44,991 nucleotides of DNA from Chiloscyllium plagiosum (taxonomy: Eukaryota). Positions 136 through 31,700 of this stretch are shown one piece after another. The DNA is taken from contig NC_057749.1 in the NCBI RefSeq assembly GCF_004010195.1, forward strand, positions 17,843,597 to 17,888,587, read 5' to 3'. The notes below the pieces were generated by a model, which was not told the DNA's origin, did no database searches, and saw only the letters and a list, made by a program, of their open reading frames with translations. The position numbers were made by a program, and so were the translations under genes. Each line of letters begins with the position of its first letter. Position 1 is the stretch's first letter.

Positions 136-1107
136 AGAGTGTGGTGAAGGACAAGGACAGAACCCCCCCCCCCCCCCCCCCACTCCTGGTCCTCACCTTC
201 CACCCCACCAACCTCCGCATATAACGTATCATCTCTATTTCCTCCACCTCCAAACGGACCCCATCACCAGAGATAGATTTCCATCCCCACCCCTATCAGC
301 GTTCCAGAGAGACCATTCCCTCCATGACTCCCTCATCAGGTCCACACACCCCACCAGCCCATACCTTACTCCTGGCACCTTTCCCTGCCACTGCAGGAAG
401 TGCAGAACCTGCACCCACACCACTCCCCTCACCTCCATCCAAGGCCCCAAGGGATCCTTCCACATCGGTTGGAAATTTACCTGTACCTTTACTAATGTCA
501 TCTATTGCATCCGTTGCACCCGGTGTGGTCTCCTCTACATCAGGGACACAGGACGCCTTCTTGTGGATCGTTTCAGAGAAATCTCTGGGACACCTGCACC
601 CACCAGCCCCACTGCCCCGTGGCTGAACACTTCAACTCCCCCTCCCACTCCGTCAAGGACATACAGATCCTGGGCCTCCTCCACCGCCGAACCCTTACCA
701 CCCAATGCCTGGAGGAGGAACGCCTCATCTTCCGCCTTAAGACCCTGCAACCACATGGGATAAATGTGGATTTCAACAGCTTCCTCATTTCCCCATCCCC
801 TAACATTATCCCAGTCCCAAGCCTCCAACTCGGCACTGCCTTCCGGACCCATCACTCCCCCCCTGACCTGTCACCTTCTCCCTCACCTTTATCCACCTAT
901 TGCTTTCCCAGCTACCTCCCTCCAATCCCAGCCCCCTCCCATTTATCTCTCAGCCCCCTTGGCCCACAAGCCTCATTCCTGATGAAGGGCTTATGCCCGA
1001 AACGTCGACTCTCCTGCTCCTCGGATGCTGCCTGACCTGCTGCGCTTTTCCAGCACCACACTCTCGACTCTGATCTCCAACATCTGCAGTCCTCACTTTC
1101 CCCTCTG
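136..1107 (+). mobile_element. Penelope-like element (PLE), 5'-truncated, with decayed GIY-YIG endonuclease and 3' pseudo-LTR
   Basis: ~458-780 translates, with a frameshift, to FTCTFTNVIYCIRCTRCGLLYIRDTGRLLVDRFRE...PVAEHFNSPSHS...EEERLIFRLKTLQPHGINVDFN, a typical PLE GIY-YIG C-terminus. Flanked by a 13-bp direct repeat TGGCATAGAGTTC (123-135, 1108-1120). Confidence 0.9.
975..1010 (+). ncRNA. Minimal type I hammerhead ribozyme motif in PLE pseudo-LTR
   Basis: ATTC-CTGATGA(979-985)-A-GGGC-TTAT-GCCC-GAAA(999-1002)-CGTC-GACT. Shows the conserved core boxes, a 4-bp stem II, palindromic ACGT stem III, a GUC cleavage triplet (1004-1006) and a short stem I. Confidence 0.8.
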
Positions 1108-2329
1108 TGGCATAGAGTTCCCCAGATGGAGAAACCTTTTCCATCAGATGATGGGTTTTTGGGCTGCTACATGGGATCCTGCCTCTTGGAGACTTCAGGT
1201 GACCATCATTGGACCAAAACTCTCTCATTGTGAGCAGCGATTTCCCCTGGTTTTCAGGAAGCCGAGGGCAAGAACAGTCAGCGACTTCACATCTCGGCAG
1301 AGCCCTCTACAATCAGCAGGGGCTGTGTTAAAGTAGAAATGAGCGTTTCCTTATGTCAGTCCCATTCACCCAGGAAGGAATGGGTTAAAATAATCACACC
1401 TGATTAAAATCAGTGACATGCAGATATAGCAATCACTGATCCCTTCTGACAAACACAGCAACATGAGTAAAATAAGGAGCCTACACTTACTGAATAGGAT
1501 AAAAATGATACAATTAAGAAACCTTTATTACTACAATCAGAACTGGCCTGAAGGCAACAGCCTGAATTTCAGATGCATTCATTGCTTATCACTCCTGTTA
1601 TAGAACTGGCCCCATCTTCCTAATGACACCAGTGTCACCATCTTCCAAGAGAAATAGCTTCCACTCTTCAACGAGTCTCTGGAGATGAATATTGTAACTT
1701 TTTTTTATGATGTGAAATTAGCTGTCTAGGCTTCTGGGCAATTTATAGATGGAAGATCCTTATATATCACGGAGGCGAATGACAATAAAATGTGCATTAT
1801 ACTTAGCAATTTAAATTTTTGTCAAAATGCATTTGGTGCTGGTTAGTCAAGCACAGATGGGACATTCAATTTGAGTTGATTCGAGGTTCCACTAGCTTCC
1901 TTGAGAAGGGTGTTTGTGCCTCCAAATCTGATCATACACTTTCCTCATTCTTCCTTCACCCAGACTACCTGCTTGTCCACAACAGCACCAGTTTACCAAA
2001 GGAGTTCAGTAAGTGAACGTATCGCAGGGAATTCATTGGAGTTTAACCAATTGCATTGATCTATTTGGTGCATGGTTTTAGATTTCAGAACATTCCACTT
2101 ACCACATCCACTCCCTGCTCGGGACTGTTTATTGCAACATAGTGCACTGGAGCCAAAACACAGTCCCTTTTGAATTTAGGAATACAGGAAATGGGATTAT
2201 GTGGCTGTTCAGACATGTCCCATTGGTTAATACCATGACAGGTGATCTGTTATGGCCTTCGGTCTCAATGGCTATTCTCTTATTCTGAGCCCCCTGTGTC
2301 CCTGGTCTGGACCCCCACTCACAACCATA

Positions 2330-2860
2330 ATGAGACCATTAGACACAGGAGCTGCAGTAGGCCATTCAGCCCACAGAGTCGACTCCACCATCCAATGGGA
2401 TCATGGCAGCTCTGAGAATCCACTTTCCTGCCCTTTCCCCATCACCCTCGAATTCCCCTTCCTGATTAAACATCTGTCTCTCTCAGCCTTGAATTATCCT
2501 TAATGACCCAGCCTCGACAGCCCTCTGTGGTAAAGGATTCATAGACTCACCACCCTCAGAAAAGAAATTCCTCATCCTCATCCCTGTCTTAAATGGGCAA
2601 TCACTTACTCTGGCCCTTGACCCTCCCACAAGGGTAAACTATCTTTCGACACTTACCCTGTCAAGGCCTCGAAGTATTTTGTATGTTTCAATAAAGACAC
2701 ATCTCACTCTTCTAAACTCCAATGAGCACAGGCCCAGTCTACTCCACATTTCCTCATATGCCAGTCCCTCCATCCCTGGGATCAGCTGAGTCAACCTTCT
2801 CTGGACTGCTCCCAATGCCGGTGTATCTTTCCTCAGATACAGGCTCAGAACTGGTCAGTT
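2330..2860 (-). mobile_element. CR1-type LINE 3' fragment, decayed
   Basis: Similar to the reverse complement of CR1 3' ends elsewhere in the window (gtaggccattcagccc..., ctgtctctctcagccttgaat, cttctaaactccaatgag). Confidence 0.65.
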
Positions 2861-3734
2861 TGTTCATGGTAAATGAGGACTGAGTGGCAATCAGGACATT
2901 TGGAGAATTTAACACCTGTGAATTGTGCTATTGGGTCCATTCTTGATTGTCCACATTACCCCCTGAAGCTTTGGTGGTCATTTAATGGGAAAGAATGAAC
3001 TTGTCGGAGTTACTGATCAAAGAAACCTCGAGTTTGCAACCACACTGAGCACTTGGTGCCTTTCCTTGGTCTGTTGGCGCTGAATGACTCAAGGAGTTTA
3101 CTTTTTCAGTAATTTCACTCATAGTGAAGGGAAATTAAACACTTTTCTTCCATATCTGCTGTCCTACATTTGCATCAGTGAAGGAGTGAACACAGTGTAA
3201 CAATATGCAGTCATTAGTCACGGTGATTCATTGGAATGCCAGCAGCACAGCCATACTCAAAAGATAGCACCAGCTCAGGAACTAAATCTGCCGGGACCGC
3301 TTCATAATCCTCCCCATGGAACGGTGAGTGCTCCAGCTGTTAATAACCACGTGTGCATTAGGAAACGGAAGCCTGTGTACATGCAGCCTGCCACACCTTG
3401 TGTTTTCAGCTTGGTTCACCTGGGCCTACTCAAAATTCTAACAGCTCCAACACCTTTTCCTGCCAGTCCACCCCTCCTCCCTTCTCCATCTCTCTTCCCC
3501 TCATCCCCTCACTGAGTCTTCCCCATCACAGGAGTATCCCACAGCGAAAGGACTCAGTCAACTTCATGTGATTATTTTATTGAAATGCACCAGCAGTAAG
3601 CTACACCAATAGATCTCTCCCCAGCCTTCAAAACACAGTAAAAAACCGCAGCAGATTCAAATTGAATTCAAACACATTCAATGAATGCTTTAAACTCAGA
3701 AAAGAACAGTCCAATGCTCTTTGCCACTGTCCTG

Positions 3735-4090
3735 TAAGGGATGATTGAGTTGCCGGGGTTGATATCCCGTGGGGTTTAGAAGAATGTCTAATATATAAAT
3801 ATGTCAATATTAAAAATATCTACAATAGTTAAGAAGCTAAAGGCAGTAAAGTTGAAAAACTGACCCCCCTTTGGGGAATCTAAAACATGGGGACCACACT
3901 CTTAGAAAAATTGATCTCCATTATGGACTGAGATGAGGAGACATTTCTTCATGTGAAAGGTTGCAAACGTTTTGGAATTTAATTGTTGCGTATATTCAGG
4001 AGAGAGATTTATCGATCTTTTGGGTAGGTATAGGATTCTGGGATTTGGGCAATGGGAAGGTCAGCTTGTTGAATGAGGGTCTCCTAATTC
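3735..4090 (+). mobile_element. CR1-type LINE 3' fragment, highly decayed
   Basis: Remnant motifs gggtttagaagaatg and ggactgagatgaggagacatttcttc resemble CR1 ORF2 3' ends. Confidence 0.45.
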
Positions 4091-5312
4091 TTGGACTTTC
4101 TTTTAAGTCTGAGAGCATTGATATTCAAGGGGGAATCTTAAACAATTGTTATTACATATACTGTCAATAGGTAGATACAGAAGGATCTAGATAGAGAGTT
4201 ATCGACACGTTTTCATCTTGCATTAATATTTTTCGTGACTCTGGGAGATAGCTGAGTCTGCTTTATCATTTCCCAGGAGGATCCCAATCTGATTAACTAA
4301 CCAGAAGATAAGTTTAATGAACACATTCAGCCCCTTTTGATATTCTTTCACTGGTGGCCACAGATTGCCGGGATTTTCATCACAGTCAATCAGATGGAAA
4401 GTATTTGTCATACATCCAAGTGTACACGCCACATGGCCACTGTCTGTTCAAAGCCAGTATGACTCCTCAATCTGGCCGGTACTTTAAAACTCTTGCACAG
4501 CAACATGCCAGAATTTCCAATGATTTCAATAGCAAGTGGAGAAATATAAAAAGCTCTGATTTGCTAAAATCTGTCCTGTATTGTTGCAGAGTTGATATCT
4601 CATCATTGCCTCCCTGACAGAGAAAGAGATGAAATTCTCTCAGCCCTGATCTTGTGTGAAATGAAAAACTGAGGTAGGTTAAGCGAAAGAGAAGGAGATC
4701 ACATTCACAGCATCAGCCACCAAACAGAAATCTTCCGAATCAAATAACCTGCGATTTCCAACAAGACACTCATCCTTCTCTGCTGCCCTGCCAAACGAGA
4801 TGATTGGTCAAGCAATAATGCAGCAATTGTCTCCCTACAGGGAGCACTGTCCAAGAATCACTCCGACTTCATTACTGATCAGTGTTACCACTCACTGGGG
4901 CCAGTGTGCTGTAAGTCCAGCCCCTTTCCTCCTGTCATTCTGTACCAAAGTAAAGCAAGAGTAGGCCATTCAGCCCTTCAAGCCTGCTCCACCATTCAAT
5001 CTGACCATAGTTCCCCACTTTCTCCCTATATCCGTTGATCCATTTAACCCTAAGACATATATCTAACTCCTTCATGAAACCAGTCGATGCAGACACTGGG
5101 ATTGCTCTCCTTATGGCATGCAGAGTTTTTTTGGGTTGGGGAGAGGTTTTATGGAGGGAAAGCAGACAAAAAGAACATATTGTCACTGGCCCAAGATTCC
5201 AATTGTCGCTTCAGATCACTGGCTAAGGATCGAGGGTCGAGATAAGAAATGATTTGTCTCAGTTGGAATCCGCTGCCTTACCAGGTGATGGGAGTTGACT
5301 CAACAGGAATTT

Positions 5313-5442
5313 CCTGATGAAGGGCTTTTGCCTAAAATGTCGATTCTCCTGTTCCTCGGATGCTGCCTAACCTGCTGTGCTTTTCCAGCATTACTCTAAT
5401 CTTGACTCTAATCTCCAGTATCTGCAGTACCCACTTTTGCCT
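5313..5442 (+). mobile_element. Solo PLE pseudo-LTR (short hammerhead-bearing element), decayed core
   Basis: Colinear with 978-1100. CTGATGA is kept, but CCCGAAACGTC has become CCTAAAATGTC (CpG decay). Probable TSD AGGAATTT (5305-5312, 5443-5450). Confidence 0.8.
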
Positions 5443-5559
5443 AGGAATTTTCAAATGGGGATCAGATAAATACTTCACAAAAAAATAACTGCATCTCCCA
5501 AGGGGGAAGGGTAGGGAGAGTGGGACCAATTCTTTTGAAGGAGCCAATGTAGCTGCACT

Positions 5560-5830: not shown

Positions 5831-5959
5831 TTGTAACAACAGAGAGAGAGAGAGAGAGAGACTCACTGCCAGTGACTGCAGGAGGAAGTAGATGCTGGAT
5901 CCTGCTGCTAGGAACAGGTTAGGTCATGATTGGAATACCACAGTGAATTCTCATCTCAA

Positions 5960-9618: not shown

Positions 9619-9683
9619 GTGTGTGTGTGTGTGTGTGACAGTGTGTGTGTGTGAGACAGTGTGTGTGAGAGAGAGAGAGAGAG
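9619..9683. repeat. (GT)n-(GA)n compound microsatellite
   Basis: Direct reading. Confidence 0.9.
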
Positions 9684-10794: not shown

Positions 10795-12100
10795 AGAACA
10801 TAGAACATTACAGTGGAGTACAAGCCCTTGGGCCCTGGATGTTGCACCGACCTGTGAAACCAATTTGAAGCCCAGCTAATTACACTATTCCATTTTCGTC
10901 CATATGTTTATCCAATGGCCACTTAAACGCCCTTAACATCAGAGAGTCTACTCCTGTAACAGGCAGTGCGTTCCATGTTCCTACTACTCTCCGAGTAAAG
11001 AAACTACCTCTGACATCTGTCCAATATCTATCACCCCTCAATTTAAAGCTATACCCCTTCGTGCTCGCCGTCATCATTCTTGGAAAAAGGCTCTCCCTGT
11101 CCACTCTATCTAACCCTCTGATTATCTAATATGTCTCTATTAAGTCACCTCTAAACCTTCTTCTCTCCAACAAAAACAGCCTCAAGTCCCTCAGCCTTTC
11201 CCCATAAGACCTTCCCTCCATACCAGGCAACATCCTCGTAAATCTCCTCTGAATCCTTTCCAGAGCTTCCACATGCTTCTTATAATGCGGTGACCAGAAC
11301 TGCACGCAATACTCCAAGTGCGGCCGCACCAGTGTTTCGTACAGCTGCAGCATAACCTCCTGGCTCTGAAACTCAATCCCTCTACCAATAAAAGCTAATA
11401 CATTGTATTAACCTCATTCCTGCTCCATGGATGCTGTCCGACCTGCTGTGCTTTTCCAGCACCACGCTCTTGATTCTGATCTCCAGCATCTGCCATCCTC
11501 ACTTTCACCTAATACAACGTAAGTTTTCTTAACAACCCTGTCAACTTGGGTGGCAACTTTCAAGGATCTATGTACCTGGACACTGAGATCTTTCTGCTCA
11601 TCTACACTACCAAGAATCTTACCATTAGCCCAGTGCTCTGTATTCCTGTTCCTCCTTCCAAAGTGATTCACCTCACACTTTTCCACATTAAACTCCATTT
11701 TCCAATGCTCAGCCCAGCTCTGCAGCTAATCTATGTCCCTCTGTAACCTACAACATCCTTCATCACAACTCTTCCAACCTTTGTGTCATCTGCAAATTTA
11801 CAAACCCATCCTTCTATGCCCTCTTCCAGGTCATTTATAACAATGACAAACAGCAGTGGCCCCAAAACAGATCCTTGTGTTACACCACTAGTAACTGAAC
11901 TCCAGGATGAATATTTCCCATCAATCACCACCCTCTGTCTTCTTACAGCTGGTCAATTTCTGATCCAAACCACTAAATCACCCTCAATCCCATGCGTCCA
12001 TATTTTGTATAATAGCCTACTGTGGGGAACCTTACCAAACGCCTTACTGAAATCCATATACACCACATCAACCACTTTACCCTCATCCACCTGTTTGGTC
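10795..12100 (-). mobile_element. CR1 LINE, 5'-truncated, decayed RT
   Basis: Minus-strand ORFs give VDVVYMDFSKAFGKVPHSRL, SGVTQGSVLGPLLFVIVINDL, CKFADDTK, MEFNVEKCEV and LYETLVRPHLEYCVQFWSP. TAGAACA tail repeat at 10794-10807. Confidence 0.92.
11411..11508 (+). mobile_element. Solo PLE pseudo-LTR inserted in CR1, hammerhead core deleted
   Basis: Colinear with 971-1100 but reads CCTCATTCCTG|CTCC, lacking the core segment. Probable TSD CTAATACA(TT/AC)GTA (11395-11407, 11509-11521). Confidence 0.8.
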
Positions 12101-12999: not shown

Positions 13000-13129
13000 G
13001 AGGAGAAAGTGAGGGCTGCAGATGCTGGAGATCAGAGCTGAAAATGTGTTGCTGGAAAAGCGCAGCAGGTCAGGCAGCATCCAAGGAGCAGGAGAATCGA
13101 CGTTTCGGGCATAAGCCCTTCTTCAGGAA
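13000..13129 (-). mobile_element. Solo PLE pseudo-LTR with intact hammerhead motif
   Basis: Minus strand reads ATTC-CTGAAGA-A-GGGC-TTAT-GCCC-GAAA-CGTC-GATT...CTCACTTTCTCC. Perfect 12-bp TSD TCCTATAACATG (12988-12999, 13130-13141). Confidence 0.9.
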
Positions 13130-14084
13130 TCCTATAACATGTCAGTTAGACATCATCCTGATGTATTGTAACACACTTTGACCTCAGGACCCTCCTTCCC
13201 ATTTGGGGAATCTGATCTGGTAAGATCTGGTTCAGACTGACAGACACAACAAGCAACAACAACTGAATAACTGTAAAAAAGAGACAGATACTGAACTGAC
13301 ACATCTTCTAATGGGGCTCAATAAAAGCCATGATATCTAGGCTGACATTAATAAAACTGACAACTGATTGATGAACATAATTAAAGCCTGTTCTTTGAAG
13401 GAGAATGTCATGCATGTCTGACAGTGAATAATGATTCCCTTAGCTTTCAACTAACTCAATGGTTTCTGTACTAATAACCCTGGCATAGAGGACTCCATAT
13501 TGTGTTGAACCCAGTGTATTATATCCACAGTGGTTTTTCACAGACACTCACTGAGGTAATAGTCTTCATGTGGACTTTTGTCAGTCAGACAGTGAGGATG
13601 TTAGACTGGGATAGAGTTTTACAGACAGGACTGATGTTGCCCTCAGTCACACACTCACTCACTGGGTAATAACCAAGAATCTGCTGTTCCCCTCCAAAAA
13701 CAGAGGAACCTCAGTAAAACTCTGACACTTACAGTGCAGATACATAGCTGTTCCTAGTATCTCACTGTAGCTCGCCTTTCTCTCAGTGCTTACACCCCCA
13801 GTCCATCTCCTTGTCTAACTTTTGTTCTAACGCTCCTCTGTGCTTGCATCTTTCCCCAACTCCCCACTTGTTATTACATTCTCCTTTCTCAGTTTGGTGA
13901 TACACTGCCCTCCTTTCAATAAAACAACAGGCATTTCGCTCGATGCCCTTATGGCTTCAGAACGTGTCAAAACCACTGTGCAATCACTTTTCAGAGTGTT
14001 GCAATCTGGGAAGCAGAGCTACCAATTCCCCGCAGCACGCTCCTATATTCACTGATGTGATCAGGTGATCTGTTCTTATTTCAG

Positions 14085-15135
14085 AAACAGAAACAGAAGC
14101 TGCTGGAAAAGTTCAGCAGATCTAGCAGTATCTGTGAAGACGAATAAGAGTTAATGTTTCAGGTCTGCTGACCCGTCCACAGAACTGACGGTAGCTAGGA
14201 AAATGTTGGTTTATATGCAGAAGATAGGGTGGGAGGGGTGAGTCAGGAGTAAATGATAGGTGGGGGTAGAGCCCAAAGAGAGAGAAGAACAGTTGGACAG
14301 ACAAAGGAGGGATAACGATTTGTCCAGGAGGGTGAATAGCTGTTAATGGAGACTGTTAGTGGCTAATAATAGGTAGTGTGTATTATGGCATAACAAAGCC
14401 TTGTGTGTGGGCTGGGGAACTAGGATATGGAAGAGTTCAAGCCCTAAAATTATTGAACTCAATATTGAGTCAGGAGGGCTGCAGGGTCCCCAGGTGGAAG
14501 GTGAACTGTTGTTCTTCCAGCTTACACTGTGCTTCACTGGAACACTGCAGCAAGGCTGTGACGGAGATGTTGGGCTGTGAAAGTGGCAGGCAACTGGAAG
14601 CTCAGGGTCTTTTTTGCAGGCAGAACGTAGATATTCTGTGAAGCAGTCACCCAGTCTACTCTTTGTTTCCCTAATATAGAGGAGATCACATTGTGAGCAG
14701 TAAACTAGATTGTGAAAAGTGCAGGTAAAGTGCTGCTTCACCTGGAAGGTATGTTTAGTCCCTTGGATCCTGAGGAAGGAGGGGGGGGTGGGGGGGGTGT
14801 GGGCGGGGGGGTGGTGGACAGGGGAGAATGTGTCTGGTGGCATCTCGTTGGAAGTGGTAGAAATGGTGGCTGATGATCTGGGTGTGGATGCTGGTGGGAT
14901 AGTAGGTAAGGATAAGGGGAACCCTATTGCTGTGTGGGAGGGAAGAGATGGGGTGTGGTCAGAAATGTGGGAGATGGGTTGGACCCGACTGAGAGCCCCT
15001 GTTGACAACAGTGCTGGGGAATATGCAGCTGGGGAAGAAGGTTCTGAGGAAGGGTCATCGGACGCGAAACATTAACTCAGATTTTTTTTCTTCACAGACC
15101 TGCTGAGCTCTTCAAGTAACTCCTGTTTTTGTTTC
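14085..15135 (-). mobile_element. Second-family Penelope-like element with GIY-YIG remnant and inverted pseudo-LTR at its 5' side
   Basis: ORF 14343-15008 contains KHTFQVKQHFTCTFHNLVYCSQCDLLYIRETKSRLGDCFTEYL...PVACHF. 14085-14186 and 15041-15135 are inverted copies of one terminal repeat. Confidence 0.85.
15041..15077 (+). ncRNA. Minimal hammerhead ribozyme motif, second PLE family (partly decayed)
   Basis: GTT-CTGAGGA-A-GGGTC-ATCG-GACGC-GAAA-CATT-AAC. Core boxes are present and stem I is GTT/AAC; stem II has one mismatch, and stem III ACAT is probably CpG-decayed ACGT. Confidence 0.55.
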
Positions 15136-16274
15136 TAATTTACAACATTCTCAGTTTTTACCTCTTCTTACTTATTGATGCTGAGGCAGAGATGTTGGCC
15201 AGGACACTACAGGTATTGCCTTAGTGATACTTTCTAACAGTGATGGGGAGATGCTTTATGTCCATAGAGAAGGACAGGCAGGACCTCAGTATCACATCGC
15301 AGTGCACTGTTCCCCAGTGTTGCACTGGAAAATGTTCAGTTTCCAGTGTTCAGTTCAGTTTATGTCTCTGGCATGAGTGTGTTTTGGATCCATAACTTCC
15401 TGACTCTTTAGGACAGCCAGTTTCTGTTTCTCTCTCAGTGTTCTGGAAGCAGCAGCATAAGCCCCAGTAACGTGTCACTTGGAAGCAATGTTTGGTGAAG
15501 CCCACACAAGAGTACAGTCCGTAGAGGACCCTGGGCTAGTGCCTCCAGTGAAGACCCCAAACAAACAGACCTTCGTTTTAAAGATCAACATGAGCTGGGG
15601 TGGGGGGATGTGAAAGCAGTTCAGTGGGGTCAGTGGGGTGGGCCCAGGGGCAAAGGGATGGTGCCTGAAGTAGGCCAATGCCTACAATGGTGGGTCCAGC
15701 TCGGGCAGCAGTGAGGTGGTGGGGGCTAAGGACATGGACTGGCTCAGAAAGATATTCTGAACTTTTTAACTTCTTTATTTTTATTATATATTCCAATGAT
15801 CTGTAATGCTGGACTATTTATTTATTTTTCAATTTTTAAAATAATTCATTGTTAAGAATCTGTCCCTTTGTACCTCGTAAGCAGCGACTTGTTAACTTTC
15901 ACCGTACTGTGTAAGTATATTTGACAATAACGCCAATTCAATTCAATTTGATTCAATCTGAGAAACGTTTGTCCCATTGAATCTGAGGCTGTGGTAACTG
16001 ATAGCACTGACCTAACAGCCTGAGCTTCAGGTTCCAAGTCCACTTCTGGTTTCTCTTTCAAATTATACTCTGGGCGATTCTTGACACCCTCCCAACTTCG
16101 ACTACCATCAGTTTAGCCGAGATCCAACCACATACTCAAGGACTCACTCATTGAATAGTTCTGAGGGCAGAAGGGTTTAAAGAGTATGGGGCAAAGGCAG
16201 AAACTGGGGTTTGATTTGGATGATTAAATTTAATTTCCGCCATACGCCATGGTGGGATTTAAACTCCAGTCCAC

Positions 16275-18944: not shown

Positions 18945-19024
18945 AGAGGTAACGAGAGCCCAGACACCAAGGTGTGCAAGCACTCAAATTACAGTAAAAT
19001 ATCGTGTCCTCTGGAACTCAGACA

Positions 19025-19165
19025 TAAAAACCAAAATAGCTGGAGAAACTCAGCAGGTCTGGCAGCATCTGTGCAGAAAGAAACACATTTACCTTTCTGA
19101 GTCCAGTTTGACACTTCTTCAAAACTGAAAGGAGTTGGGAAATGGGGTGGTGGGTTTATACTGTA
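19025..19165 (-). mobile_element. Decayed PLE pseudo-LTR-like fragment
   Basis: gctggagaaactcagcaggtctggcagcatctgtg...agaaa matches 41870-41915 and resembles 14098-14140. Confidence 0.55.
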
Positions 19166-21713: not shown

Positions 21714-21898
21714 TTTCGCAAGTTAGATAGGTGAGGGGAGGTGAGGTGAGGGGAGGGGAGGGGTGGGGAGGGGAGGGGTGGGGAGGGGAGGGGAGATGGA
21801 GCCTGTTCCTATTCCTTATTCATATGTTCATTCGTATGTTTGTGCGTTAATGTGTTTGTGTGTTGCCATGCCCTAATGTTTATATGTTCATATGTTGG

Positions 21899-22014
21899 AG
21901 AACTGCAGATGCTGGAGATCAGAGTTGAGAGCATGGTGCTAGAAAAGCACAGCAGGTCAGGCAGCATCCGAGCAGCAGGAAAATTGATGTTTCGGGCATA
22001 AGCCCTTCATCAGG
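21899..22014 (-). mobile_element. Solo PLE pseudo-LTR with hammerhead core
   Basis: Minus strand reads TC-CTGATGA-A-GGGC-TTAT-GCCC-GAAA-CATC. 15-bp TSD ATGTTCA(T/G)ATGTTGG (21884-21898, 22015-22029). Confidence 0.85.
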
Positions 22015-23964
22015 ATGTTCAGATGTTGGTATGTTTCAATATGTGGATGTACAATCATTTTAACAAAAGGCTCAAAATTAATTGAAGTGGTGAACTTTGA
22101 CTGGAACCATATCGATCTTGTCTATAAAGTTCTGCCTGGAGAGGCTTGGGACCCACAATCCCCCAACTCTGCCCCATCACTAATACCAAGCTGATGGTCA
22201 AGTGGAGAACTCTGGTCCTTGATGGAGATTAGACTGTCAGAAGATGCTGTTCCACCCTTTAGCTGTTGTGGGCCTGGAGAATTGGAAATGACAGGATTGT
22301 GACTCACATTGTGACCTGCCAGGGATGTCAGCCTGAGAACTTCATTCCCCACCCACAGGGACCCTTCAATGACAACATACATTGGTCTTGTTTCTGTATT
22401 AACTCAGCAAGCAAAGCAGGCTCATTCCAGCCTACACCACCCTGCCATACACTTACCCACCGTCCCAATTCACTGTGCCAACAGGAAGCCAGGCAAAGCT
22501 CTGTTCTAATACCCATCCAGTGACAGGATAGCTCATTGTACACAAAGGCAGGAATGTCCCATCCCAATCCCCAACCCAGCATACATTTCACCAGGGAGTA
22601 GGTCACCTATCAATGGAACAGCATCTCATGGAGTGTGTGAAAGTTGGAGGAGGTGGAGTGTGGGATGGGAGTGGGGAGTTGGGAGTGTGTGGGAGTGGGG
22701 GAGAGGGAGTGGATGGAGCAGGATGGGCTGGGGATGGTGGGGGGGGGGGCAAGTGGTATTGGGGAAGGATGTCAGTAAAATCACTATTGGTGAATGTTTG
22801 GTCATTCCTGTGAAGGATGTCATTATGCTGAGTTAGTTCCTGACTTTAAAACAGGAATTCTTGTTTCCTCTACTCCTACTGGCACTGACGCGTGGGCTTT
22901 AATAATTAACCCATTCATTTTCAACCGCAGTTTTATCCCTCTCCCCACCGGGGTAACACCAGTCTCAAATCAACATCCTCATAAGGAACATACTCATCCC
23001 AGGAACGCGTGCCTCAGGGAGTGGATGGGACACTCACTGGGCACATGCCAACACAGTTCAGAGACAAATCCTCATTGAGCTCCATCCACAAGGTCAGATA
23101 CTGCCCCCCATTTCACCAGCTCAGCCTCCTGCTTTCACCCTTCCATTAGTCTTCATCACCAGGAACACCTTCTCAAGAGCTCACTTCTCCTGACATCATC
23201 AACCCACTGTGGAGCTGGGGGGGTGTTGAACCCAGGCCTCTGGCTCAGAGGCAGGGACACTACCACTACAAGAGCTTCATTTCTTTTTCTTCTAGCAGAG
23301 CTCGTACACACAACTGAACGCTTTTGTTCTTCTTCACCAAACCCTCCCACGGTAATTTCCAGCCGTTAACCACCACCATTAAATCACCTGTGTTTTCCAA
23401 TGGATTCATCGAAGACAATGGAGACCATTGAAGGGGAGGGAGAGAGGGGAGGGGGCTAAATGAAATGGAGTTGGAAAGAGTTCACTTCTATTCTGTTCGC
23501 CTGAACAAAGGGACTTGGCTCCATTCACTGACTGTTGCTCCAATACAAAGAGGATGAAATCCCAGAACAATTAGTCACATTAACTCTAATTGCTGCATTA
23601 AAGTGACTCCAGGGTCATCTCTTTGTGTAGGCTAATGAGGACTTTATTCCACTCAGCTCTCCCCTGGGGGCCGAGCTGATTACCTGGATCCCTGTGAGCT
23701 GGATCTCCACTCTGTACACGATCAGCCACAATCCCTGAGTCAAGATCTGACCAGCACCGTGTCATTCCTCACCCATCTGTAACAAACAGTGAGCTCAGCC
23801 AGTGGCTTTCCACACTCAGAATTCACCGCAGCAGGCTGGGTTGGTTTTAATCATCCATCCCTCAATCCCCAGACTGAAAGGACCACTTCAGAGGACTATT
23901 AATGAGTCTGACTGGAGTCACATACTGGCCCAGACTGGGTAAAGGTGAAAGGACAGGCTCCTAC

Positions 23965-25230
23965 TATTGACTACAGTTGAACACTATAATTCCAAACAAA
24001 TGCACCTGTAAATTCTGGGACCTGGGACTCTGTTCCCAACTCTGTGACTGGATTCTCAACGTCCTGACCAACAGACTGTAGACAGTGAGGAGAGGAGACC
24101 ACACCTCCTTTACTATAATCCTCAACACAGGAGCCCTGTAAGGTTGTGTACTCAGGCCCCTGCTATATTCCTTGTACAGTGTGGCCAAATTCCATCCCAA
24201 CTCCATTTACAGGCTCGCTGATGGAACCACCATTGTAGGTTGTACCTCAGACAACAATGAGATGGAAAACAGGAAAGGGATTGAATGTTTAATGCCACGG
24301 CATAAAGACAACAATCCCTCAGGAAAATGAAAGAGCTGGTCATTGCGTTCAGGAAGTGGAGTGCAGGGTTTGCCAGTGCCTCTATCAGTGCCATTGAGAT
24401 GGTCAAGAGCATCACGTTCCTCGGAGGGACAGTCACCGACAGACTGTCCTGGTCCACCTAAGTTGGCACTCTGGTCAAGAAAGCACAACAACATCTCTAC
24501 CTCCTCAGGAGGCTAGGGAAATTCAGCATATCCACAAGGACTCTTACCAATTTTTGTAGATGCACCATAGACAGCTTCCGATCTGGGTGCACCATGGCTC
24601 AGTATGGCAACTGCTCTGCCCAGGACCACAAGAAACTGCAGAGAGTTGCGAACACAGCCCAGTCCCTCACACAAACCAACCTTCCATTCATTGGATCCGT
24701 CTACCCTTCCTACTGCCTCAGGGAAGCAACCAACATCATCACAGAGCCCTCCCACCCTGGTATACTCTCTTCCAATCCCTCTTCCATCATGCAGTAAACA
24801 CAAAAGTCTGAATACACATATGGTTAGATTCTTCCTCGCTGTTGTCAGACTTTTGAATGGACTTGAAAATGTGTTGCTGAAAAAGTGCAGCAGGTCAGGC
24901 AGCACCCAGGGAACAGGAGAATCGACGTTTCGGGCATAAGCCCTTCTTCTTATGCCCGAAAAGTCGATTCTCCTGTTCCCTGGATGCTGCCTGACCTGCT
25001 GCGCTTTTCCAGCAACACATTTGCAGCTCTGATCTCCAGCATCTGCAGTCCTCACTTTCTCCTTTTGAATGGACTTCTCAAATGTTAATGTTGATCTCTC
25101 CCTCTCTCACTCTGCACCTTTCCCATTGCTGTAACACTGTATTCTGCACTCCGTTCTGTTACCCCGCTGCACTTTGTATGGTACAACCTGCCTGGACAGC
25201 ACACAAAGCTGAACTACTCACAGTGCCTCG
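23965..25230 (+). mobile_element. Rex1/Babar-type LINE, decayed RT and 3' end
   Basis: Frameshifted remnants read IDYS..NTIIP, DLGLCSQLCDWILNVLTNR, IILNTGA..GCVL, VKKAQQHLYLLRRLGKF, TLTNFCRCTIDS and YGNCSAQDHKKLQRVANTAQ. Confidence 0.8.
24865..25061. mobile_element. Inverted (hairpin) double PLE pseudo-LTR insertion
   Basis: 24864-24940 is the reverse complement of 24949-25025 (about 77 bp, 5 mismatches, 8-nt loop). Perfect 15-bp TSD CTTTTGAATGGACTT (24850-24864, 25062-25076). Confidence 0.92.
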
Positions 25231-26454: not shown

Positions 26455-26840
26455 NNNNNNNNNNNNNNNNNNNNNNNNNNNNNNNNNNNNNNNNNNNNNN
26501 NNNNNNNNNNNNNNNNNNNNNNNNNNNNNNNNNNNNNNNNNNNNNNNNNNNNNNNNNNNNNNNNNNNNNNNNNNNNNNNNNNNNNNNNNNNNNNNNNNNN
26601 NNNNNNNNNNNNNNNNNNNNNNNNNNNNNNNNNNNNNNNNNNNNNNNNNNNNNNNNNNNNNNNNNNNNNNNNNNNNNNNNNNNNNNNNNNNNNNNNNNNN
26701 NNNNNNNNNNNNNNNNNNNNNNNNNNNNNNNNNNNNNNNNNNNNNNNNNNNNNNNNNNNNNNNNNNNNNNNNNNNNNNNNNNNNNNNNNNNNNNNNNNNN
26801 NNNNNNNNNNNNNNNNNNNNNNNNNNNNNNNNNNNNNNNN
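26455..26840. other. Assembly gap flanked by GTGAG(G)-type simple repeats
   Basis: Run of N. Confidence 1.
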
Positions 26841-27831
26841 GATTAATTGAGTGAGTGAATGAGGGAGGAATTGAGTGAGTGACAGAGGGGGACAGTGGCT
26901 ATGGAGTGTGTTACTCAATGGGCGTTTGCCCTGGGCCTTTGCCAGCTGGTGTAGCTGGGTGACAGACTGCTCAGTGCAAAGACAGTATCACAAACTGACT
27001 GGACCAATCTCATCATCTCTCCCTCCTTCCACTCTCAGCCCTTTGGGTACCTCTCCCTGTTCTCCGTCCCCCACCCTGCCAGTCTGGGGGAGGGGACAAT
27101 GCTCTTGTGGTTCAGTTTGTGGTAAGTGTTCACACTCAGGGCCTCGCACCATCACAGAATATTCCACCTGCTGACTCCCACTACCCAGGCCACAGGGCTT
27201 GTGCCTGTAGGTGCCAGCCCTGGTACACAGTGGAAACGGTAACTGCCTGCCCACATTGAAGATGTAACTCAAGGGCATCCCTCCAAAACGGCATTGTGTG
27301 GGAAAGATGGACCAGGAGCCCTTCACAAATATCAGCATGAAGGAGCACATCAGCCTGTGACCAAACCCAGGCCCAGGAATGTTCTCCTCAATGCTGCTGT
27401 AAACAGTCTAAAACCAGGAATACCATCTCACACTGGGATTCGGCAGGTTCACTGACATCAGTGTCAAACCATCTCATGGCTAACAAATGGAAAGAAACCC
27501 TTTCTGTTGTTGTTGGACCAGGTGTAATAATGACAGTAATAATAGTAATAATCATCAGTCAGTTGTTACCCTCAACAGGACAATGCCAGTCCAGGACCTT
27601 GCTCCCACTCCCACACCCCCCACCCCGACCTGAAGGAGCTGTGAAGGGGGAAGGTCCACACCAGCATTGATCATAAACCCCTCCATCAACCCACTGCACT
27701 CCCCTGATCAGACTCAACTTTCCATTTCCTGGCGTTTGGGGTCCCAGGGGACCCAGGGGTACTGTCTCCACACAGACATTGTCCAGATTCCCAGCTAGTT
27801 CCAGTGGTCAATCAACAGGAGCTACTCAGGG

Positions 27832-28169
27832 CAGGCCAGGCCAGGCCAGACCAAACCAGGCCAGGCCAGGCCAGACCAAACCAGGCCAGGCCAAGCCAGA
27901 CCAGGCCAAGCCAGACCAAACCAAACCATGCCAGGCTAGGCCAGACCAAACCAGGCCAGGCTAGGCCAGACCAAACCAGGCCAGGCCAGCCCAGGCCAGG
28001 CCAAGCCAGACCAAACCAAACCATGCCAGGCTAGGCCAGACCAAACCAGGCCAGGCTAGTCCAGACCAAACCAGGCCAGGCCAGCCCAGGCCAGGCCAAG
28101 CCAGACCAAACCAAACCAGGCCAGGCTTGGCCAGACCAAACCAAACCAGGCCTGGCCAGCCCAGGCCAG
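27832..28169. repeat. Pentanucleotide repeat (CCAGG with CCAGA/CCAAA/CCAAG/CTAGG variants)
   Basis: Direct reading. Confidence 0.95.
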
Positions 28170-28499
28170 TGCCCAGCAATCCTGGAGCGCACTTGGAACT
28201 GTGGGCAACTCACCTGCACACGGAGCAATGAAGTGGAAATGTTGAACTTGTTCAAGAGTTAAACTGAACTGGCTCTTTTTTCCAAACAAGAGGACCCTCC
28301 AATTCTGGGTCACGTTCCTGCTCTGTCTCTCTCCCTCATTCATAACAACCTGCATTTCGATAGCACCTCCCAAAACCCCAGTGCAACCTTCCAAGGTGCC
28401 TCACAGGAGAGATACATGATGAGATGTTAGGGTGGGTAAGCCAAAGCTGAGCCAATAGGATCAGTTTTAAACGATGCCATCAAGGAACGGAGACTGTTC

Positions 28500-28740
28500 T
28501 GGACCTGAGGAATGGCCTGAGCAACTCGTCGACCCTTCTTTATACATTTACCCCCTCTCAGTCGCCTTTACTCCAAGGGACATAACACCCAAGGGGATGT
28601 TAAGATCTCTATCGTTGTTTTCAAACTATTCTCCATGCCTCAGCCTCTCCATCCCTTTCATCTCCTCCAACATCCCAACCTCCAAGAGCTCCTCCAATTC
28701 TGGCCTTTGGATCATTTGCCGATTGCCGTCGCCTTACCAT
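28500..28740 (+). mobile_element. L2-type LINE ORF2 C-terminal fragment
   Basis: Remnants VKISIVVFK and SSSNSGLW resemble the L2 motif FKILILVFKSLHG.AP.YL...RSSNSGLL. The sequence runs directly into the 21-bp array. The comparison motif is recalled, not searched. Confidence 0.55.
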
Positions 28741-31700
28741 GGATGACCATCTCCCTACCATTGATGACCATCGCCCTGCCATTGGTGACCATCTCCCTAC
28801 CATTTGTGACCATCGTCCTGCCATTGATGACCATCGTCCTACCATTGGTGACCATCGCCCTTCCATTGATGACCATCACCCTGTCATTGATGACCATCTC
28901 CCTGCCATTGAGGACCATCGCCCTACCATTGAGGACCATCTACTTACCATCGATGATCATCGCCCTACCATTGCCGACCATCGCCTTACCATTATGACCA
29001 TCTCCCTACCATTGGTGACCATCGCCCTGCATTGGCGACCATCGCCCTACCATTGATGAACATTGCCCTGCCATTGATGACTATTGCCCGATCATTGGTG
29101 ACCATTACCCTTCCATTGATGACCATCATCATACAATTGTGACCATCGCCCTACCATTGGTTACCATTCCGTGCCATTGGTGACCATCACCCTGCCATTG
29201 TGGACCATTACCCTAACATTGGTGACCATCACCCTATAATTGGTGACCTTTACCGTGCCATTGATGACCATCTCACTACCATTGGTGACCATTGCCATGC
29301 CATTGATGGCCATCGCCCTGCCATTTGTGACCATCGCCCTGCCATTGGTGACCATTGCCCTACCATTGACGACCATCTCCCTTCCACTGGTGACCATCCA
29401 CTTACCATTGATGATCATCGCCCTATCATTGACGACCATCTCCCTTCCATTGGTGACCATCCACTTATCATTGATAATCATCGCCCTACCATTGACGACC
29501 ATCTCCCTTCCATTGGTGACCATCTTCCTACCATTGATGACCATAGCCCTGCCATTGATGGCCATCGTCCTACGATTGGTGACCATCACCCTTCCATTGA
29601 CGACAATCACTCTGCCATTGGGGACCATCGCTCTAACATTGGTGACCAGGACCCTTCCATTGATGACCATCGCACTACCATTGATTACCATCGCCCTACC
29701 ATTGATTACCATCATCCTACCATTATTGAACATCACCCTGGCATTGGTGATGATCACCCTGCCTTGGTGTCCATCACCCTACCATTGATGACCATCTCCC
29801 TACCATTGGTGACCATCGCCCTGCCATTGGTGACCATCCCCCTACTATTGGTGACCATCGGCCTACCATTGGTGAACATCACCCTACCATTGATGACCAT
29901 TGCCCTGCCATTGGTGACCATCGCCCTACCATTGTGACCATCGGCCTACTATTGGTGACCATCATCCTACCACTGATGACCATTGCCTTACCATTGGTGA
30001 ACATCACCCTACCATTGATGACCATTGGTGACCATGACCCTACCATTGATGACCATTACCCTACCTTTGGTGACCACCGCCCTACGATTGATGACCATCA
30101 CCCTACCATTGATGACCATCACCCTACCATTGGTGACCATCTCCCTCCCATTGTGGACCATTGCCCAAACATTGATGTTCATCACCCTGCCATTAATGAC
30201 CATGTCGCTCCCATTGTGGACCATTGCCCTAACATTGATGACCATCACCCTGCCATTGATGACCATCGCCCTACCATTGATGACCATCGCCCTACCATTG
30301 GTGACCATCACCCTACCATTGATAACTATCGCCCTACCATTGGTGACCATCACCCTACCATTGATAACCATCGCCCTACCATTGATGACCATCACCCTGC
30401 CATTGATGACCATCGCCCTACCATTGATGACCATCACCCTGCCATTGGTGACCATCGCCATACCATTGTGGACCATTAGTTGAAACTTTATTGCTGGAAC
30501 AGCACAGCAGGTCAGGCAGCATCCAGGGAACAGGAGATTTGACGTTTCGGGCACAGGCCCTTCTTCAGGAATGAGCAGAGAGTGTTCAGCAGGAGAAGAT
30601 AAAAGGTAGGGAGGAGGGACTTGGAGGAGGGGAGTTGGAAATGGTTGGTCAACATGATTAGAAGGTTGTGGGGAGATTGAGGAGGCAGGGAGAGATCAAA
30701 TCATAGTGACGAGTAGGGTTTGGAGAAAGGTGGCCAATCACAGTGCAGGAACAGGTTCACTTGAGGGACCAGATGAGGTCCTGTTTCTGCTGTGTAGGGT
30801 TTTGATTTACAATCTGTAACTTGCTGATTTTAGGAGGTTTGAATCACTCCCATATCCCAAACACTTTGGAATTGCCCAAACATTGATGTTCATCACCCTG
30901 CCATTAATGACCATCTCGCTCCCATTGTGGACCATTGCCCTAACATTGATGACCATCACCCTGCCATTGGTGACCATCACCCTACCATTGATAACTATTG
31001 CCCTACCATTGGTGACCATTACCCTACCATTGATAACCATCGCCCTACCATTGATGACCATCACCCTGCCATTGGTGACCATCGCCATACCATTGTGGAC
31101 CATTACCCTACCATTGATGACCATCGCCCTGCCATTTGTGACCATCACCCTGCCATTGGTGACCATCACCCTGCCATTTGTGACCATTGCCCTGCCATTG
31201 GTGACCATCGCCCTAACATTGGTAACCAGCGACCTACCATTGATGACCATCACCCTACCATTGACGACCATCTCCCTTCCATTGGTGACCATCCACTTAC
31301 CATTGATTACCATCTCCCTACAATTGGTGACCATCACCCTACCATTGACGACCTTTGCCCTACCATTGATGACCATCGCCCTAACATTGGTGACCAGCGC
31401 CCTACCATTGATGACCATCGCCCTACGATTGATGACCATCGCCCTGCCATTGGTGACCAACTCCCTACCATTGGTGACCATCTCCCTACCATTGATGACC
31501 ATAGCCCTGCCAATGATGACCTTCACCCTACCATTGGTGACCATCACCCTGCCATTGGTGAACATTGCCCTGCATTGGTGACCATCGCCTGACCATTGGT
31601 GACCATCTCCTTACCACTGGGGACCATCGCCCTAACATTGGTGACCATCACCCTTCCATTGTTGAACATCACCCTGGCATTGGTGACGATCACCATACCA

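Follow-up and report, generated by a model that had tools for sequence, protein, structure and literature searches.

What are the short, hammerhead-bearing repeats of this locus, and how did they come to be inserted apart from the remainder of the element that they derive from? In the window, by which we mean the whole 44,991-bp stretch of Chiloscyllium plagiosum contig NC_057749.1 that was analysed, end-pieces of a Penelope-like element (PLE), 85-130 bp long, lie scattered, and the complete units have a hammerhead motif at their 5' start. A preliminary description had reported a hammerhead-bearing repeat family here, and this observation was confirmed. Copies were placed in the window by BLAST and repeat finding (Table 1); q denotes a coordinate in window copy 1. 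The 3' repeat was located at all the sites where it had been said to recur, but the copy at 30478 turned out not to be solo, since it runs to ~30644. The full core through GUC is indeed present in the three copies named for it, at 979, 13102 (-) and 30544 (-). At up to 3 mismatches, the core pattern gave 6 matches in the window, and none was obtained in 100 shuffles. At least 5 further copies in the window are older and decayed and belong to a sister family, family F.

Table 1. Features of the PLE-derived units in the window (positions from the first base of the window)
Feature	Position	Strand	Remarks
5'-truncated PLE	136-1107	+	ORFs; protein alignment; TSD
Terminal unit, copy 1	975-1107	+	inside 5'-truncated element 136-1107
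Minimal type I hammerhead motif	975-1010	+	core pattern and alignment
Conserved middle box	1024-1058	+	GAUGCUGCC(U/A)GA(C/A)CUGCUG...UUCCAGC; kept in three diverged families
Tail, optional ~45-nt 3' extension	1060-1107	+	box UCCAGCAUCUGCAG; kept across families
Short unit, long form	5311-5442	+	hammerhead decayed, 3 mismatches to core pattern; TSD AGGAATTT
5'-truncated unit, q1012-1104	11418-11510	+	without hammerhead; long form with tail
Complete short unit, long form	13000-13130	-	intact core; AUUC start; 12-bp TSD (score 12); unique flank
Short unit	21898-22015	-	3' end within tail (q1094); 14-15-bp TSD, 1 mismatch (score 13)
Head-to-head pair, one insertion event	24870-24949 and 24949-25063	- and +	15-bp TSD CTTTTGAATGGACTT, score 15
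5'-truncated PLE copy, 167 bp, CUGU-loop subtype	30478-30644	-	intact core; short 3' form
Family F, old, decayed	~14040-14195 (near 14132)	-	5-bp helix II
Family F, old	~15030-15200 (near 15093)	+	recognisable hammerhead half
Family F, old	~18975-19130 (near 19069)	-	
Family F, old	~41810-41965 (near 41901)	-	
Family F, old head-to-head pair	~42065-42320	42159 (-)/42223 (+)	tail box on plus arm only

The parent element and its terminal unit

The element at 136-1107 contains the end of the RT-EN linker, a zinc-finger linker, part of the GIY-YIG endonuclease, the 3' UTR and the terminal unit. Its GIY-YIG coding part is interrupted by a frameshift (ORF list), and a 13-bp TSD, TGGCATAGAGTTC, was read from the sequence at 123-135 and 1108-1120. 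An ORF translation from the window aligned with the linker and EN of a 904-aa RT and GIY-YIG protein at 46% identity over 114 aa (E 6e-26), and Pfam gave weak GIY-YIG matches (E 0.0097 and 0.075). With the RT fragment of a sister copy as query, 178 proteins were matched at E<=0.001; the top matches bear shark or ray names, and the proteins of ~800-950 aa among them carry PF00078 and PF01541. By its predicted protein, the parent is an endonuclease-bearing PLE with reverse transcriptase, zinc-finger linker and GIY-YIG nuclease. The protein matches and the alignment agree with the earlier proposal that the terminal unit is the 3' end of such an element. The label of a terminal repeat was not borne out, as we saw neither a full-length element with two direct repeats nor a 5' copy of the unit in a full-length element; in the single near-full-length copy that we examined, an inverted arm is present in its place. 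This arm belongs to the same subfamily as the body and continues ~30 nt beyond the hammerhead, which indicates that long RNAs serve at the second nick as well.

The unit comprises the last 85-130 nt of the PLE, namely the hammerhead, the middle box and the optional tail. In copy 1, helix I is formed by AUUC (975-978) and GACU (1007-1010). C3-A9, CUGAUGA (979-985), is followed by an extra A (986), helix II GGGC/GCCC with loop UUAU (987-998), GAA (999-1001), A15.1-CG-U16.1 (1002-1005) and C17 (1006), and the predicted cut falls between 1006 and 1007. The 5' end of the unit is the 5' strand of the 4-bp helix I. The middle box, which has a small predicted hairpin (CUGCUG/CAGCA), is presumed to serve in RT/EN recognition and as the first initiation region; the 3' ends of short forms fall just past it, at q1051-1066. 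The tail box can pair with the middle box in both MFE and centroid folds.

Insertion structure of the short units

The very high copy number proposed from the window was borne out genome-wide, where the core CUGANGA-A-GGGC-loop-GCCC-GAAAC-GUC has 87,506 exact matches and the middle-box 19-mer 232,719, as against 0 for the reversed control in each case. Insertion anatomy was studied in a sample of 61 copies in 224,769 bases, in which the 5'-end classes of 41 copies were sorted by hand. Twenty-nine of these 41 core-bearing copies end 0-8 nt upstream of the core, and the other 12 extend into PLE-internal sequence. In line with what had been supposed, this shared edge argues for a discrete short unit that random truncation does not explain. 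Among the same 41 copies, all containing C3, 15 are arms of pairs and 14 have unique flanks; 13 of the latter start at q971-978 and one at q985. In most copies the copied part starts 0-4 nt before C3 (helix I first base), sometimes with filler. A PLE-internal 4-mer lies upstream in 48,277 of 100,281 ATTCC+core copies genome-wide and in 7 of 14 in the sample. The 3' ends are bimodal, at q1051-1066 in 26/61 and q1099-1120 in 21/61, and a tail box follows the middle box in 29/69 (sample).

TSDs are 10-15 bp long, and a TSD score of at least 10 was obtained in 18 of the 45 events tested, including 9 of 12 pairs (mismatched-flank controls, 0.7%). All 12 paired events are head-to-head, with none tandem or tail-to-tail; tandem copies were found in 0 of 49 insertion events, and a head-to-tail junction in only 2 contigs. 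In each of the 10 pairs having both middle boxes the tail is on a single arm (chance ~7e-4 by arithmetic), and private variants are common to both arms. The pair at 24870-25063 is an example, with a short minus arm lacking the tail, a long plus arm bearing it, 94% complementarity between the arms and a junction within the hammerhead. TSDs, bimodal 3' ends and head-to-head pairs with a one-sided tail are published PLE hallmarks, and the proposed mobilisation by PLE machinery is upheld by TSD-making insertion of this type. Four marks have been described for canonical PLE insertions (Craig et al. 2021, PMC8557442): they are heavily truncated at the 5' end, include an inverted copy that is itself 5'-truncated, bear a tail of 30-40 bp at one of their ends, and have their transcription start within the pseudo-LTR. 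We count all four structural marks as seen here, the transcription start at q975 itself by analogy; unlike in that description, partial tandems or direct pseudo-LTRs occur in 0/49 sampled events, and the tail is ~45 nt.

We consider it probable, at roughly 70%, that the units are retrotransposed end-pieces of endonuclease-bearing (Neptune-like) PLEs, made from short RNAs that start at the hammerhead edge. The PLE RT/GIY-YIG protein would nick both DNA strands, and the RT would prime on the RNA at either of two internal start sites, past the middle box or past the tail, to which the two 3'-end classes would correspond. Copying would proceed to the 5' end of the short RNA, and inverted pairs would arise by priming from both nicks. 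The most likely reason for a short RNA with this 5' end would be that transcription of the element starts within its terminal region, as in Drosophila Penelope and Chlamys. By this analogy we infer a start at q975, the context of which we take to be initiator-like (YYANWYY).

In PAc, the Poseidon PLE of Anolis carolinensis, two adjacent internal RT start sites have been described, and the genomic 'tail' corresponds to the sequence that separates them (Frangieh et al. 2024, PMC11167929). A two-start-site pattern of the same kind would account for the tail and the two 3'-end classes here. The PAc hammerhead, which is dispensable for insertion in vitro, overlaps the ORF start (PMC11167929), whereas that of the present units follows the EN coding part and is ~130 nt away from the 3' end.

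Alternatively, there may be no separate short RNA, and the RT may copy long PLE transcripts and then stop or switch template in a programmed way after the hammerhead; a bound protein, or a jump to the other cDNA that starts second-strand synthesis, could be the trigger. Long RNAs are common templates, as the copied sequence continues through the hammerhead in ~40% of core-bearing copies; the second-nick arm and the body of the near-full-length insertion are of one subfamily, and shared private variants in pair arms would be expected if one RNA or cDNA served both ends. However, RT pauses usually precede a structure instead of directly following it, helix II has no more than 4 bp, the near-full-length arm does not halt at the hammerhead edge, and solo units with TSDs abutting q975-978 need no second template. 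We hold this explanation to be unlikely.

The discrete 5' end and very high copy number of the unit, together with its conserved boxes, presumably required for recognition, might also be expected of an independent SINE-like, non-autonomous ~120-bp family that has master copies and an internal promoter of its own and parasitises the proteins of PLEs. Precedents are the non-autonomous PLE derivative MRC1 of Chlamys (PMC8557442) and retrozymes from PLE terminal repeats (bioRxiv 10.64898/2026.07.22.740005). Against this, every loop/N7 subtype was found both as short units and in longer PLE copies attached to PLE-internal sequence (UAAU was solo-only in the sample, but not genome-wide), and in the small sample the short units showed no diagnostic substitutions of their own. 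As the subtypes are common to both, the units look like by-products of every PLE subfamily, without master copies of their own, and the independent lineage suggested in the preliminary description appears quite unlikely. Moreover, a tRNA, 7SL or 5S head is absent (Rfam search), and the unit contains a run of four T, which would stop pol III.

Recombination between direct repeats of full-length elements, comparable to the origin of solo LTRs, would leave solo units with their TSDs, as observed, and direct pseudo-LTRs have been described for PLEs (PMC4209133, PMC8557442). It does not readily account for two alternative 3' ends, one-sided tails, a single TSD flanking head-to-head pairs, or 5' ends that vary by 0-4 nt with occasional filler. 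First-look candidates for the EN end (143,056) and the N-terminal end (16,043), a rough comparison and not copy numbers, fit truncation at insertion better than later deletion. We regard this origin as highly improbable.

Conservation and activity of the hammerhead motif

Minimal hammerheads in PLE terminal repeats have an extra nucleotide after A9 and palindromic 15.2-16.2 positions (Cervera & de la Pena 2014, PMC4209133). As had been claimed, the present motif carries the published features: a type I core with helix I of 4-5 bp, an unpaired A between A9 and G10.1, a G10.1-C11.1 pair, and palindromic ACGU with no real helix III. Rfam hammerhead models gave no match in the window even at E<=10, nor did other ribozyme families in Rfam at that threshold. 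Helix I is paired at only 3 of 4 positions in the commonest subtypes, and 2.3-1.3 is unpaired in 11 of 23 distinct rows.

Family F, with 355 exact cores, likewise starts 4 nt before C3. It shares its layout with the main family, and its helices I and II show compensatory changes. Three pairs are changed on both sides, namely helix I 2.1-1.1 (CG 12, UA 7), helix I 2.3-1.3 and helix II pair 4 (CG 15, UA 8), although these separate just two families and so amount to a small number of independent events; for helix II the counts carry a bias, as exact core and helix II patterns served to select the rows of the alignment (A2). Pairing was found in 89.8% of alignment cells, as against 5-49% with partners slid. 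These comparisons indicate that selection maintains the hammerhead in the source elements.

In one single-cell polyA run, RNA reads cover the element on both strands and 96% continue into unlike flanks; no pile-up of RNA 5' ends was reported at the predicted cut and depth shows no step there, so neither unit-length RNA nor cleavage was seen. The absence of tandems in 49 events implies that these loci do not form the cis dimers through which cleavage has been proposed to occur. Together with the Rfam result, these observations fail to bear out the ribozyme activity put forward in the preliminary description. Inserted copies keep the whole ribozyme, so their templates were uncut and cleavage is not what defines them. 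It is possible, though we would put it only tentatively, that the motif does not cleave in vivo and is kept as an RNA structure, a protein-binding site at the template 5' end, or promoter DNA. Published minimal PLE hammerheads are poor cleavers in vitro (PMC4209133), and insertion by the Anolis PLE in vitro is unaffected by catalytic mutants (PMC11167929). On the other hand, the Anolis hammerhead does cleave with its protein present (PMC11167929), every catalytic-core position is kept in two families that differ elsewhere, and the source lineages retain both the ACGU palindrome, which contains a CpG, and the cleavage triplet (GUC or GUU) despite fast CpG decay in dead copies.

Relation to other hammerhead-bearing elements

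The family is a further, very abundant member of an already described kind, the minimal hammerheads of PLE termini, and reaches hundreds of thousands of copies here. In Sm-alpha, the SINE-like element of Schistosoma mansoni, the hammerhead is canonical and active and makes loop-loop contacts, and the element has a pol III-type head; neither such a hammerhead nor such a head is present here (Rfam search). Sm-alpha resembles our units in being a short, dispersed, high-copy, non-autonomous retroelement with a type I hammerhead (PMC6155905). As with PLE minimal hammerheads elsewhere, mostly dispersed single motifs, taken as truncated PLEs, are accompanied by opposite-strand pairs ~100-700 bp apart (PMC4209133). 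That account gives ~4,000 motifs in coelacanth and ~9,000 in Xenopus, as compared with the 87,506 exact cores here, and a helix II of 7-8 bp in the Schistosoma families, as compared with 4-5 bp; in its available portions, a discrete 5'-end position of the motif in the inserted unit is not described. Animal non-LTR retrozymes are likewise short, non-coding hammerhead derivatives related to PLE terminal repeats and occur as dispersed monomers (Cervera & de la Pena 2020, PMC7229834; Li et al. 2026 preprint), but they are defined by tandem arrays giving circular RNAs, whereas the present units are not tandem.

Two minus-strand copies of the window differ from the complete units. In that at 21898-22015 the core (at 21989) is intact through GAAAC and GUC has become AUC by CpG decay. 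The copy at 30478-30644 reaches PLE-internal sequence, 69 nt upstream of the hammerhead, and sits in a 21-bp satellite array.

Copies of the terminal unit in the window and the genome

The repeat noted in the preliminary description was confirmed by pattern search, alignment and repeat finding across the whole window, and its copies are listed in the table. Each corresponds to the last ~85-130 nt of a Penelope-like element (PLE), comprising a hammerhead, a middle box and an optional tail of ~45 nt. The hammerhead core, CUGANGA-A-GGGC-loop-GCCC-GAAAC-GUC, was recovered as an exact pattern at all three sites where an intact core had been described, and core-like motifs with up to three mismatches were found six times in the window against none in 100 shuffles. 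The repeat at 30478 was present as described but does not stand alone, since it runs on to ~30644 into element-internal sequence. The window also holds at least five copies of an older sister family, which were absent from the earlier list.

Features of the unit and its copies in the window (q, position in copy 1, the unit at 975-1107)
Feature	Position	Strand	Remark
Hammerhead	q975-1010		block 1; conserved across three families
Middle box	q1024-1058		block 2; includes small predicted hairpin
Tail box	within q1075-1093		block 3; able to pair with middle box (predicted fold)
Unit at end of 5'-truncated element 136-1107	975-1107	+	core intact from 979
Unit copy	5311-5442	+	alignment/repeat finding
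Unit copy	11418-11510	+	alignment/repeat finding
Unit copy	13000-13130	-	whole core through GUC intact at 13102 (-)
Unit copy	21898-22015	-	alignment/repeat finding
Head-to-head pair	24870-24949 (-) joined to 24949-25063 (+)	both	alignment/repeat finding
Unit copy	30478-30575	-	whole core through GUC intact at 30544 (-)

Other repeats were observed in the same DNA. A large tandem array with a 21-bp unit (28594-36094; ~270 registers, 60-83% identity) is broken by the PLE fragment 30478-30644 and then by other sequence up to ~30870. GT/GA-rich and CA/CT-rich simple repeats at 9619-9683 and 38558-38797, which pair as inverted repeats, are ordinary microsatellite-like sequence. At 40362 (-) there is a middle-box-like match with three substitutions and no recognisable hammerhead or tail nearby, which may be a very old copy or a chance match.

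The very high copy number proposed for the family was borne out by a genome-wide count. In the 3.56-Gb assembly containing the window, exact matches to the 28-nt core pattern number 87,506 (43,730 forward and 43,776 reverse), against none for the reversed control, and those to a 19-mer of the middle box 232,719. An unbiased sample, made up of the window and 200 kb from nearby (224,769 non-N bases), contains 61 copies that can be detected when the window copy serves as query. Scaling the sample density gives a total of roughly 0.4-0.6 million copies, an extrapolation rather than a count, from a sample in which both motifs are about twice as dense as in the genome. The copy number is ~10 times the largest minimal-hammerhead counts in the available sections of PMC4209133, and exceeds the 14,255 axolotl retrozymes given in the accessible part of a 2026 preprint (bioRxiv 10.64898/2026.07.22.740005). 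The genome offers an unusually large natural data set, with several subfamilies, no fewer than 87,506 intact cores and compensatory changes in the older sister family.

Anatomy of the unit and its hammerhead

Alignment of natural copies of three diverged families revealed three conserved blocks separated by variable sequence. The predicted fold of the whole unit is not unusually stable (z = -0.13). The hammerhead reads, in order, AUUC, CUGA(A,U)GA, A, GGGC-loop-GCCC, GAA, A-CG-U and C, followed by the predicted cut and GA(U,A)U. We compared 31 natural copies (23 distinct rows) of two families, selected by exact core and helix II patterns, so that neither core nor helix II is an unbiased test in this set. 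The core columns (C3 U4 G5 A6 N7 G8 A9, G12 A13 A14 and A15.1-U16.1) and an extra unpaired A after A9 are invariant, and H17 at the predicted cut is C or U. Helix II is either GGGC/GCCC (4 bp) or GGGUC/GACCC (5 bp), is closed by G10.1-C11.1 and pairs in 100% of cells. For helix I, whose columns lay outside the selecting pattern, 4 bp are possible (AUUC with GAAU or GAUU; AGUU with AACU) and 76.1% of cells pair; position 2.3-1.3 is unpaired in 11 of the 23 distinct rows, with a U-U or U-C mismatch in common subtypes. The palindromic ACGU (15.2-16.2) is invariant in both families and there is no intramolecular helix III. Dimers in cis are not available, as none of the 49 insertion events in the sample is tandem.

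The preliminary description had suggested a search with hammerhead models; over the whole window those of Rfam gave no match, whether the limit was the gathering threshold or E<=10, and the same search returned no other ribozyme family. The miss is expected because the motif is without helix III and loop contacts, and its membership among hammerheads is therefore based on the minimal descriptor in the literature. PLE ends were reported to carry minimal hammerheads in 2014 (PMC4209133), and those of metazoan PLEs, as given in the available sections of that report, share with the present motif the extra nucleotide after A9, the G10.1-C11.1 pair, a short helix I (putative in the present motif), the lack of helix III and the palindromic ACGU. 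In another stretch of the genome (L027 5292-5351 (-)), PLE-internal upstream sequence is joined directly to CGUCGAUU..., with the hammerhead from C3 to A15.1 precisely missing.

The older sister family, with 355 exact cores genome-wide, keeps the layout but not the sequence: C3 is preceded by AGUU, helix II has 5 bp (GGGUC/GACCC), and GUU then AACU stands at the predicted cut. Its copies likewise begin at the first nucleotide of helix I. Pairing was found in 89.8% of cells over the same 31 copies, compared with 5-49% after sliding the partners. Helix I pair 2.1-1.1 is changed on both sides (CG 12, UA 7), as are pair 2.3-1.3 and helix II pair 4 (CG in 15 distinct rows, UA in 8), and these both-sided changes separate the two families only. 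The pairing is evidence that the hammerhead fold may be under selection, drawn from two families only, from pattern-chosen rows and with helix I mismatched in common subtypes.

Insertion marks, the 5' edge and the identity of the short unit

Target-site duplications (TSDs) were scored from flank matches. A match of at least 10 was found for 18 of 45 testable events against 0.7% of controls, in which flanks were paired from different events, and 9 of the 12 head-to-head pairs were among the events reaching this score. The 3' ends in the sample are bimodal, with 26/61 at q1051-1066 and 21/61 at q1099-1120, and a query-independent motif count placed a tail box after 29 of 69 middle boxes. Orientation is similarly restricted: among the 49 events there are 12 head-to-head pairs and none that is tandem or tail-to-tail. 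The two arms of a pair have private variants in common. The tail is on exactly one arm in all ten pairs that keep both middle boxes, for which we computed a chance of ~7e-4 at a tail frequency of 0.42. A near-full-length copy follows the same plan: its 14-bp TSD encloses an inverted short arm that lacks the tail, followed by the body and a tailed 3' end.

PLE insertion marks described in the available text of PMC8557442 include 5' truncation, an inverted 5' copy and a 30-40-bp tail on one side, and an Anolis PLE has two adjacent internal start sites for reverse transcription (PMC11167929, in the part available). The TSDs, 3' ends, orientation and one-sided tails point to copies made by PLE-type insertion. 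The two classes of 3' end, together with strictly one-sided tails, would amount to a genomic read-out of the two-start-site mechanism observed in vitro for the Anolis element (PMC11167929).

The head-to-head pair at 24893-24997 folds into a long hairpin. Weak matches to the microRNA precursor model mir-680 on both strands there (E 0.12 and 0.25, far below gathering), the only ones that Rfam gave for any copy, are artefacts, since the hairpin is the pair itself. With 12 in 225 kb, such pairs are common and could be mis-annotated as hairpin RNA genes or feed small-RNA pathways; in annotation, units and pairs alike are likely to be left unclassified or taken for such genes.

Random truncation had been named as the alternative for the short copies, and their 5' ends speak against it. 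A raw histogram, with 28 of 61 ends at q971-981, was set aside as an overcount, since several copies of other subfamilies extend further upstream in sequence that does not resemble the query. We therefore re-sorted by hand, from comparison of upstream flanks, the 41 sampled copies containing C3. Unique flanks were seen in 14, of which 13 start at q971-978 and one at q985; 15 are arms of pairs, joined at the hammerhead or just inside it; and 12 run on for 21 nt or more into the interior of the PLE. Across the genome, a PLE-internal 4-mer lies directly upstream in 48,277 of 100,281 ATTCC+core copies (~1% expected by chance), and the same test gave 7/14 in the sample, indicating that the sample is representative. 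The 5' ends of the flank-sorted copies thus cluster no more than a few bases from the nucleotide that opens helix I, and few begin at the predicted cleavage site. The structural point is simple: insertions start with the opening base of helix I and keep an uncut ribozyme, so that models in which hammerhead cleavage trims the transposition template must explain uncut products.

The further proposal of a SINE-like family found no support as regards a separate lineage, of which there is no sign because every subtype was found both short and long. Units with a UAAU loop were considered as a solo-only lineage and rejected, as such loops were also seen in copies preceded by PLE-internal sequence. 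Four T in a row lie within the unit. Identity as a pol III SINE was discarded, no tRNA-, 7SL- or 5S-derived head being seen in that no such Rfam family overlaps any copy at E<=10. A non-LTR retrozyme was likewise rejected because tandem arrays are missing from the 224,769 bases (0/49 events). A head-to-tail joint ('goes back 127') was seen in two contigs of one deep sequencing run. The unit is the minimal-hammerhead PLE terminus described in 2014, and its insertion anatomy is textbook PLE. What goes beyond the available sections of PMC4209133 and related papers is the scale, the start of the unit at helix I and the older family with compensatory changes. We found no description of this family in a literature search on Penelope in sharks or Chiloscyllium and on elasmobranch hammerheads, Repbase, Dfam and supplements lying outside its scope; for the whale shark, the accessible text merely lists Penelope among transposon superfamilies.

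Template RNA and parent element

In the mechanism we propose, the PLE protein would nick both strands, reverse transcription would start at one of two internal sites, and copying would proceed to the 5' end of an RNA beginning at the hammerhead edge. The sequence context at the 5' edge of the unit resembles what we take to be an initiator element, and a stop of reverse transcription just after a 4-bp hairpin would be unusual. For these reasons, and by analogy with Drosophila Penelope and Chlamys, a transcription start at the hammerhead edge is the favoured explanation. In both of those elements the start site is placed within the terminal repeat (PMC8557442, in the part available). That the short units instead arise on long RNAs, by a programmed stop or a template jump, seems improbable to us; long RNAs are clearly used as templates too, as seen in the copies reading through the hammerhead and in the near-full-length copy. 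The ribozyme cannot be what trims the template, since the products retain it whole.

In the most far-reaching reading, the hammerhead might be a functional, cap-proximal module at the exact 5' end of a pol II PLE mini-RNA of ~130 nt, which would serve as the main substrate of the PLE machinery rather than the full-length transcript. We put the probability of this reading at about one in five. If true, the units would form a SINE-like family that sustains itself, numbers a few hundred thousand copies and is larger than any hammerhead-bearing family reported in any genome; the ribozyme could then act on the capped RNA, for instance cutting off the first 32 nt to switch an RNA between fates. In one polyA single-cell RNA run the element was found on both strands, mostly within other transcripts, with 96% of reads running into unlike sequence; this library, unfit for short non-polyadenylated RNA and unsuited to judging cleavage, gave no pile-up of ends or depth step at the predicted cut 13098/13099. 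Sequencing runs of four organism labels share about one third of sampled words, equal to the element's share of the stretch, which we regard as a lead only.

The parent was examined at the protein level. Upstream of copy 1 an ORF encodes a Cys-rich linker and a GIY...YIG-type motif. Pfam returned no family for the window's own endonuclease fragments, and matches to GIY-YIG on decayed copies were below the cut-off (E 0.075 and 0.0097). The reverse transcriptase (RT) fragment of a sister copy matched 178 proteins at E<=0.001, the best named matches being sharks and a ray, as would fit a probable elasmobranch genome, and gave no match in a PDB sequence search. Homologues of ~800-950 aa combine PF00078 with PF01541, and the window ORF aligns with the linker and endonuclease of one such RT/GIY-YIG homologue (46% identity over 114 aa, E 6e-26). 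Endonuclease-bearing PLEs are built in this way, with the GIY-YIG nuclease C-terminal to the RT; judged by this combination in a single ORF among its homologues, the parent is an endonuclease-bearing PLE. A preliminary genome-wide scan gave 143,056 candidates for the endonuclease end of the protein against 16,043 for its N-terminal part, which fits heavy 5' truncation. Recent activity is suggested by the many N-terminal matches that lie in open frames of more than 900 aa and are 91-95% identical to a shark protein.

In other stretches of the genome (L035 1008-4815, L045 1-372, L019, and L032 768-1030), the parts of PLE copies that encode the RT fall on long N runs, and in L045 readable sequence resumes at the hammerhead; these runs may be assembly gaps. 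A stretch reported with a 1,521-aa open frame proved to contain 3,807 N and yielded no full-length structure. An apparent repeat-ORF-repeat arrangement in the stretch L009, with copies 4.2 kb apart, was resolved into independent truncated copies with unrelated DNA between them. At 166-181 of the window a run of ~20 C lies within the coding part, where relatives encode ...DRTPLVLTFHPTN..., and is a homopolymer expansion in a dead copy. At 496-1035 (+) of the window and at 4371-4643 (+) of L009, the frame for the endonuclease end runs without a stop across the 3' UTR and the hammerhead. Both frames close with one and the same TGA, located in the middle box (GCCUGACC), which may reflect chance in C/T-rich sequence or the true end of the ORF.
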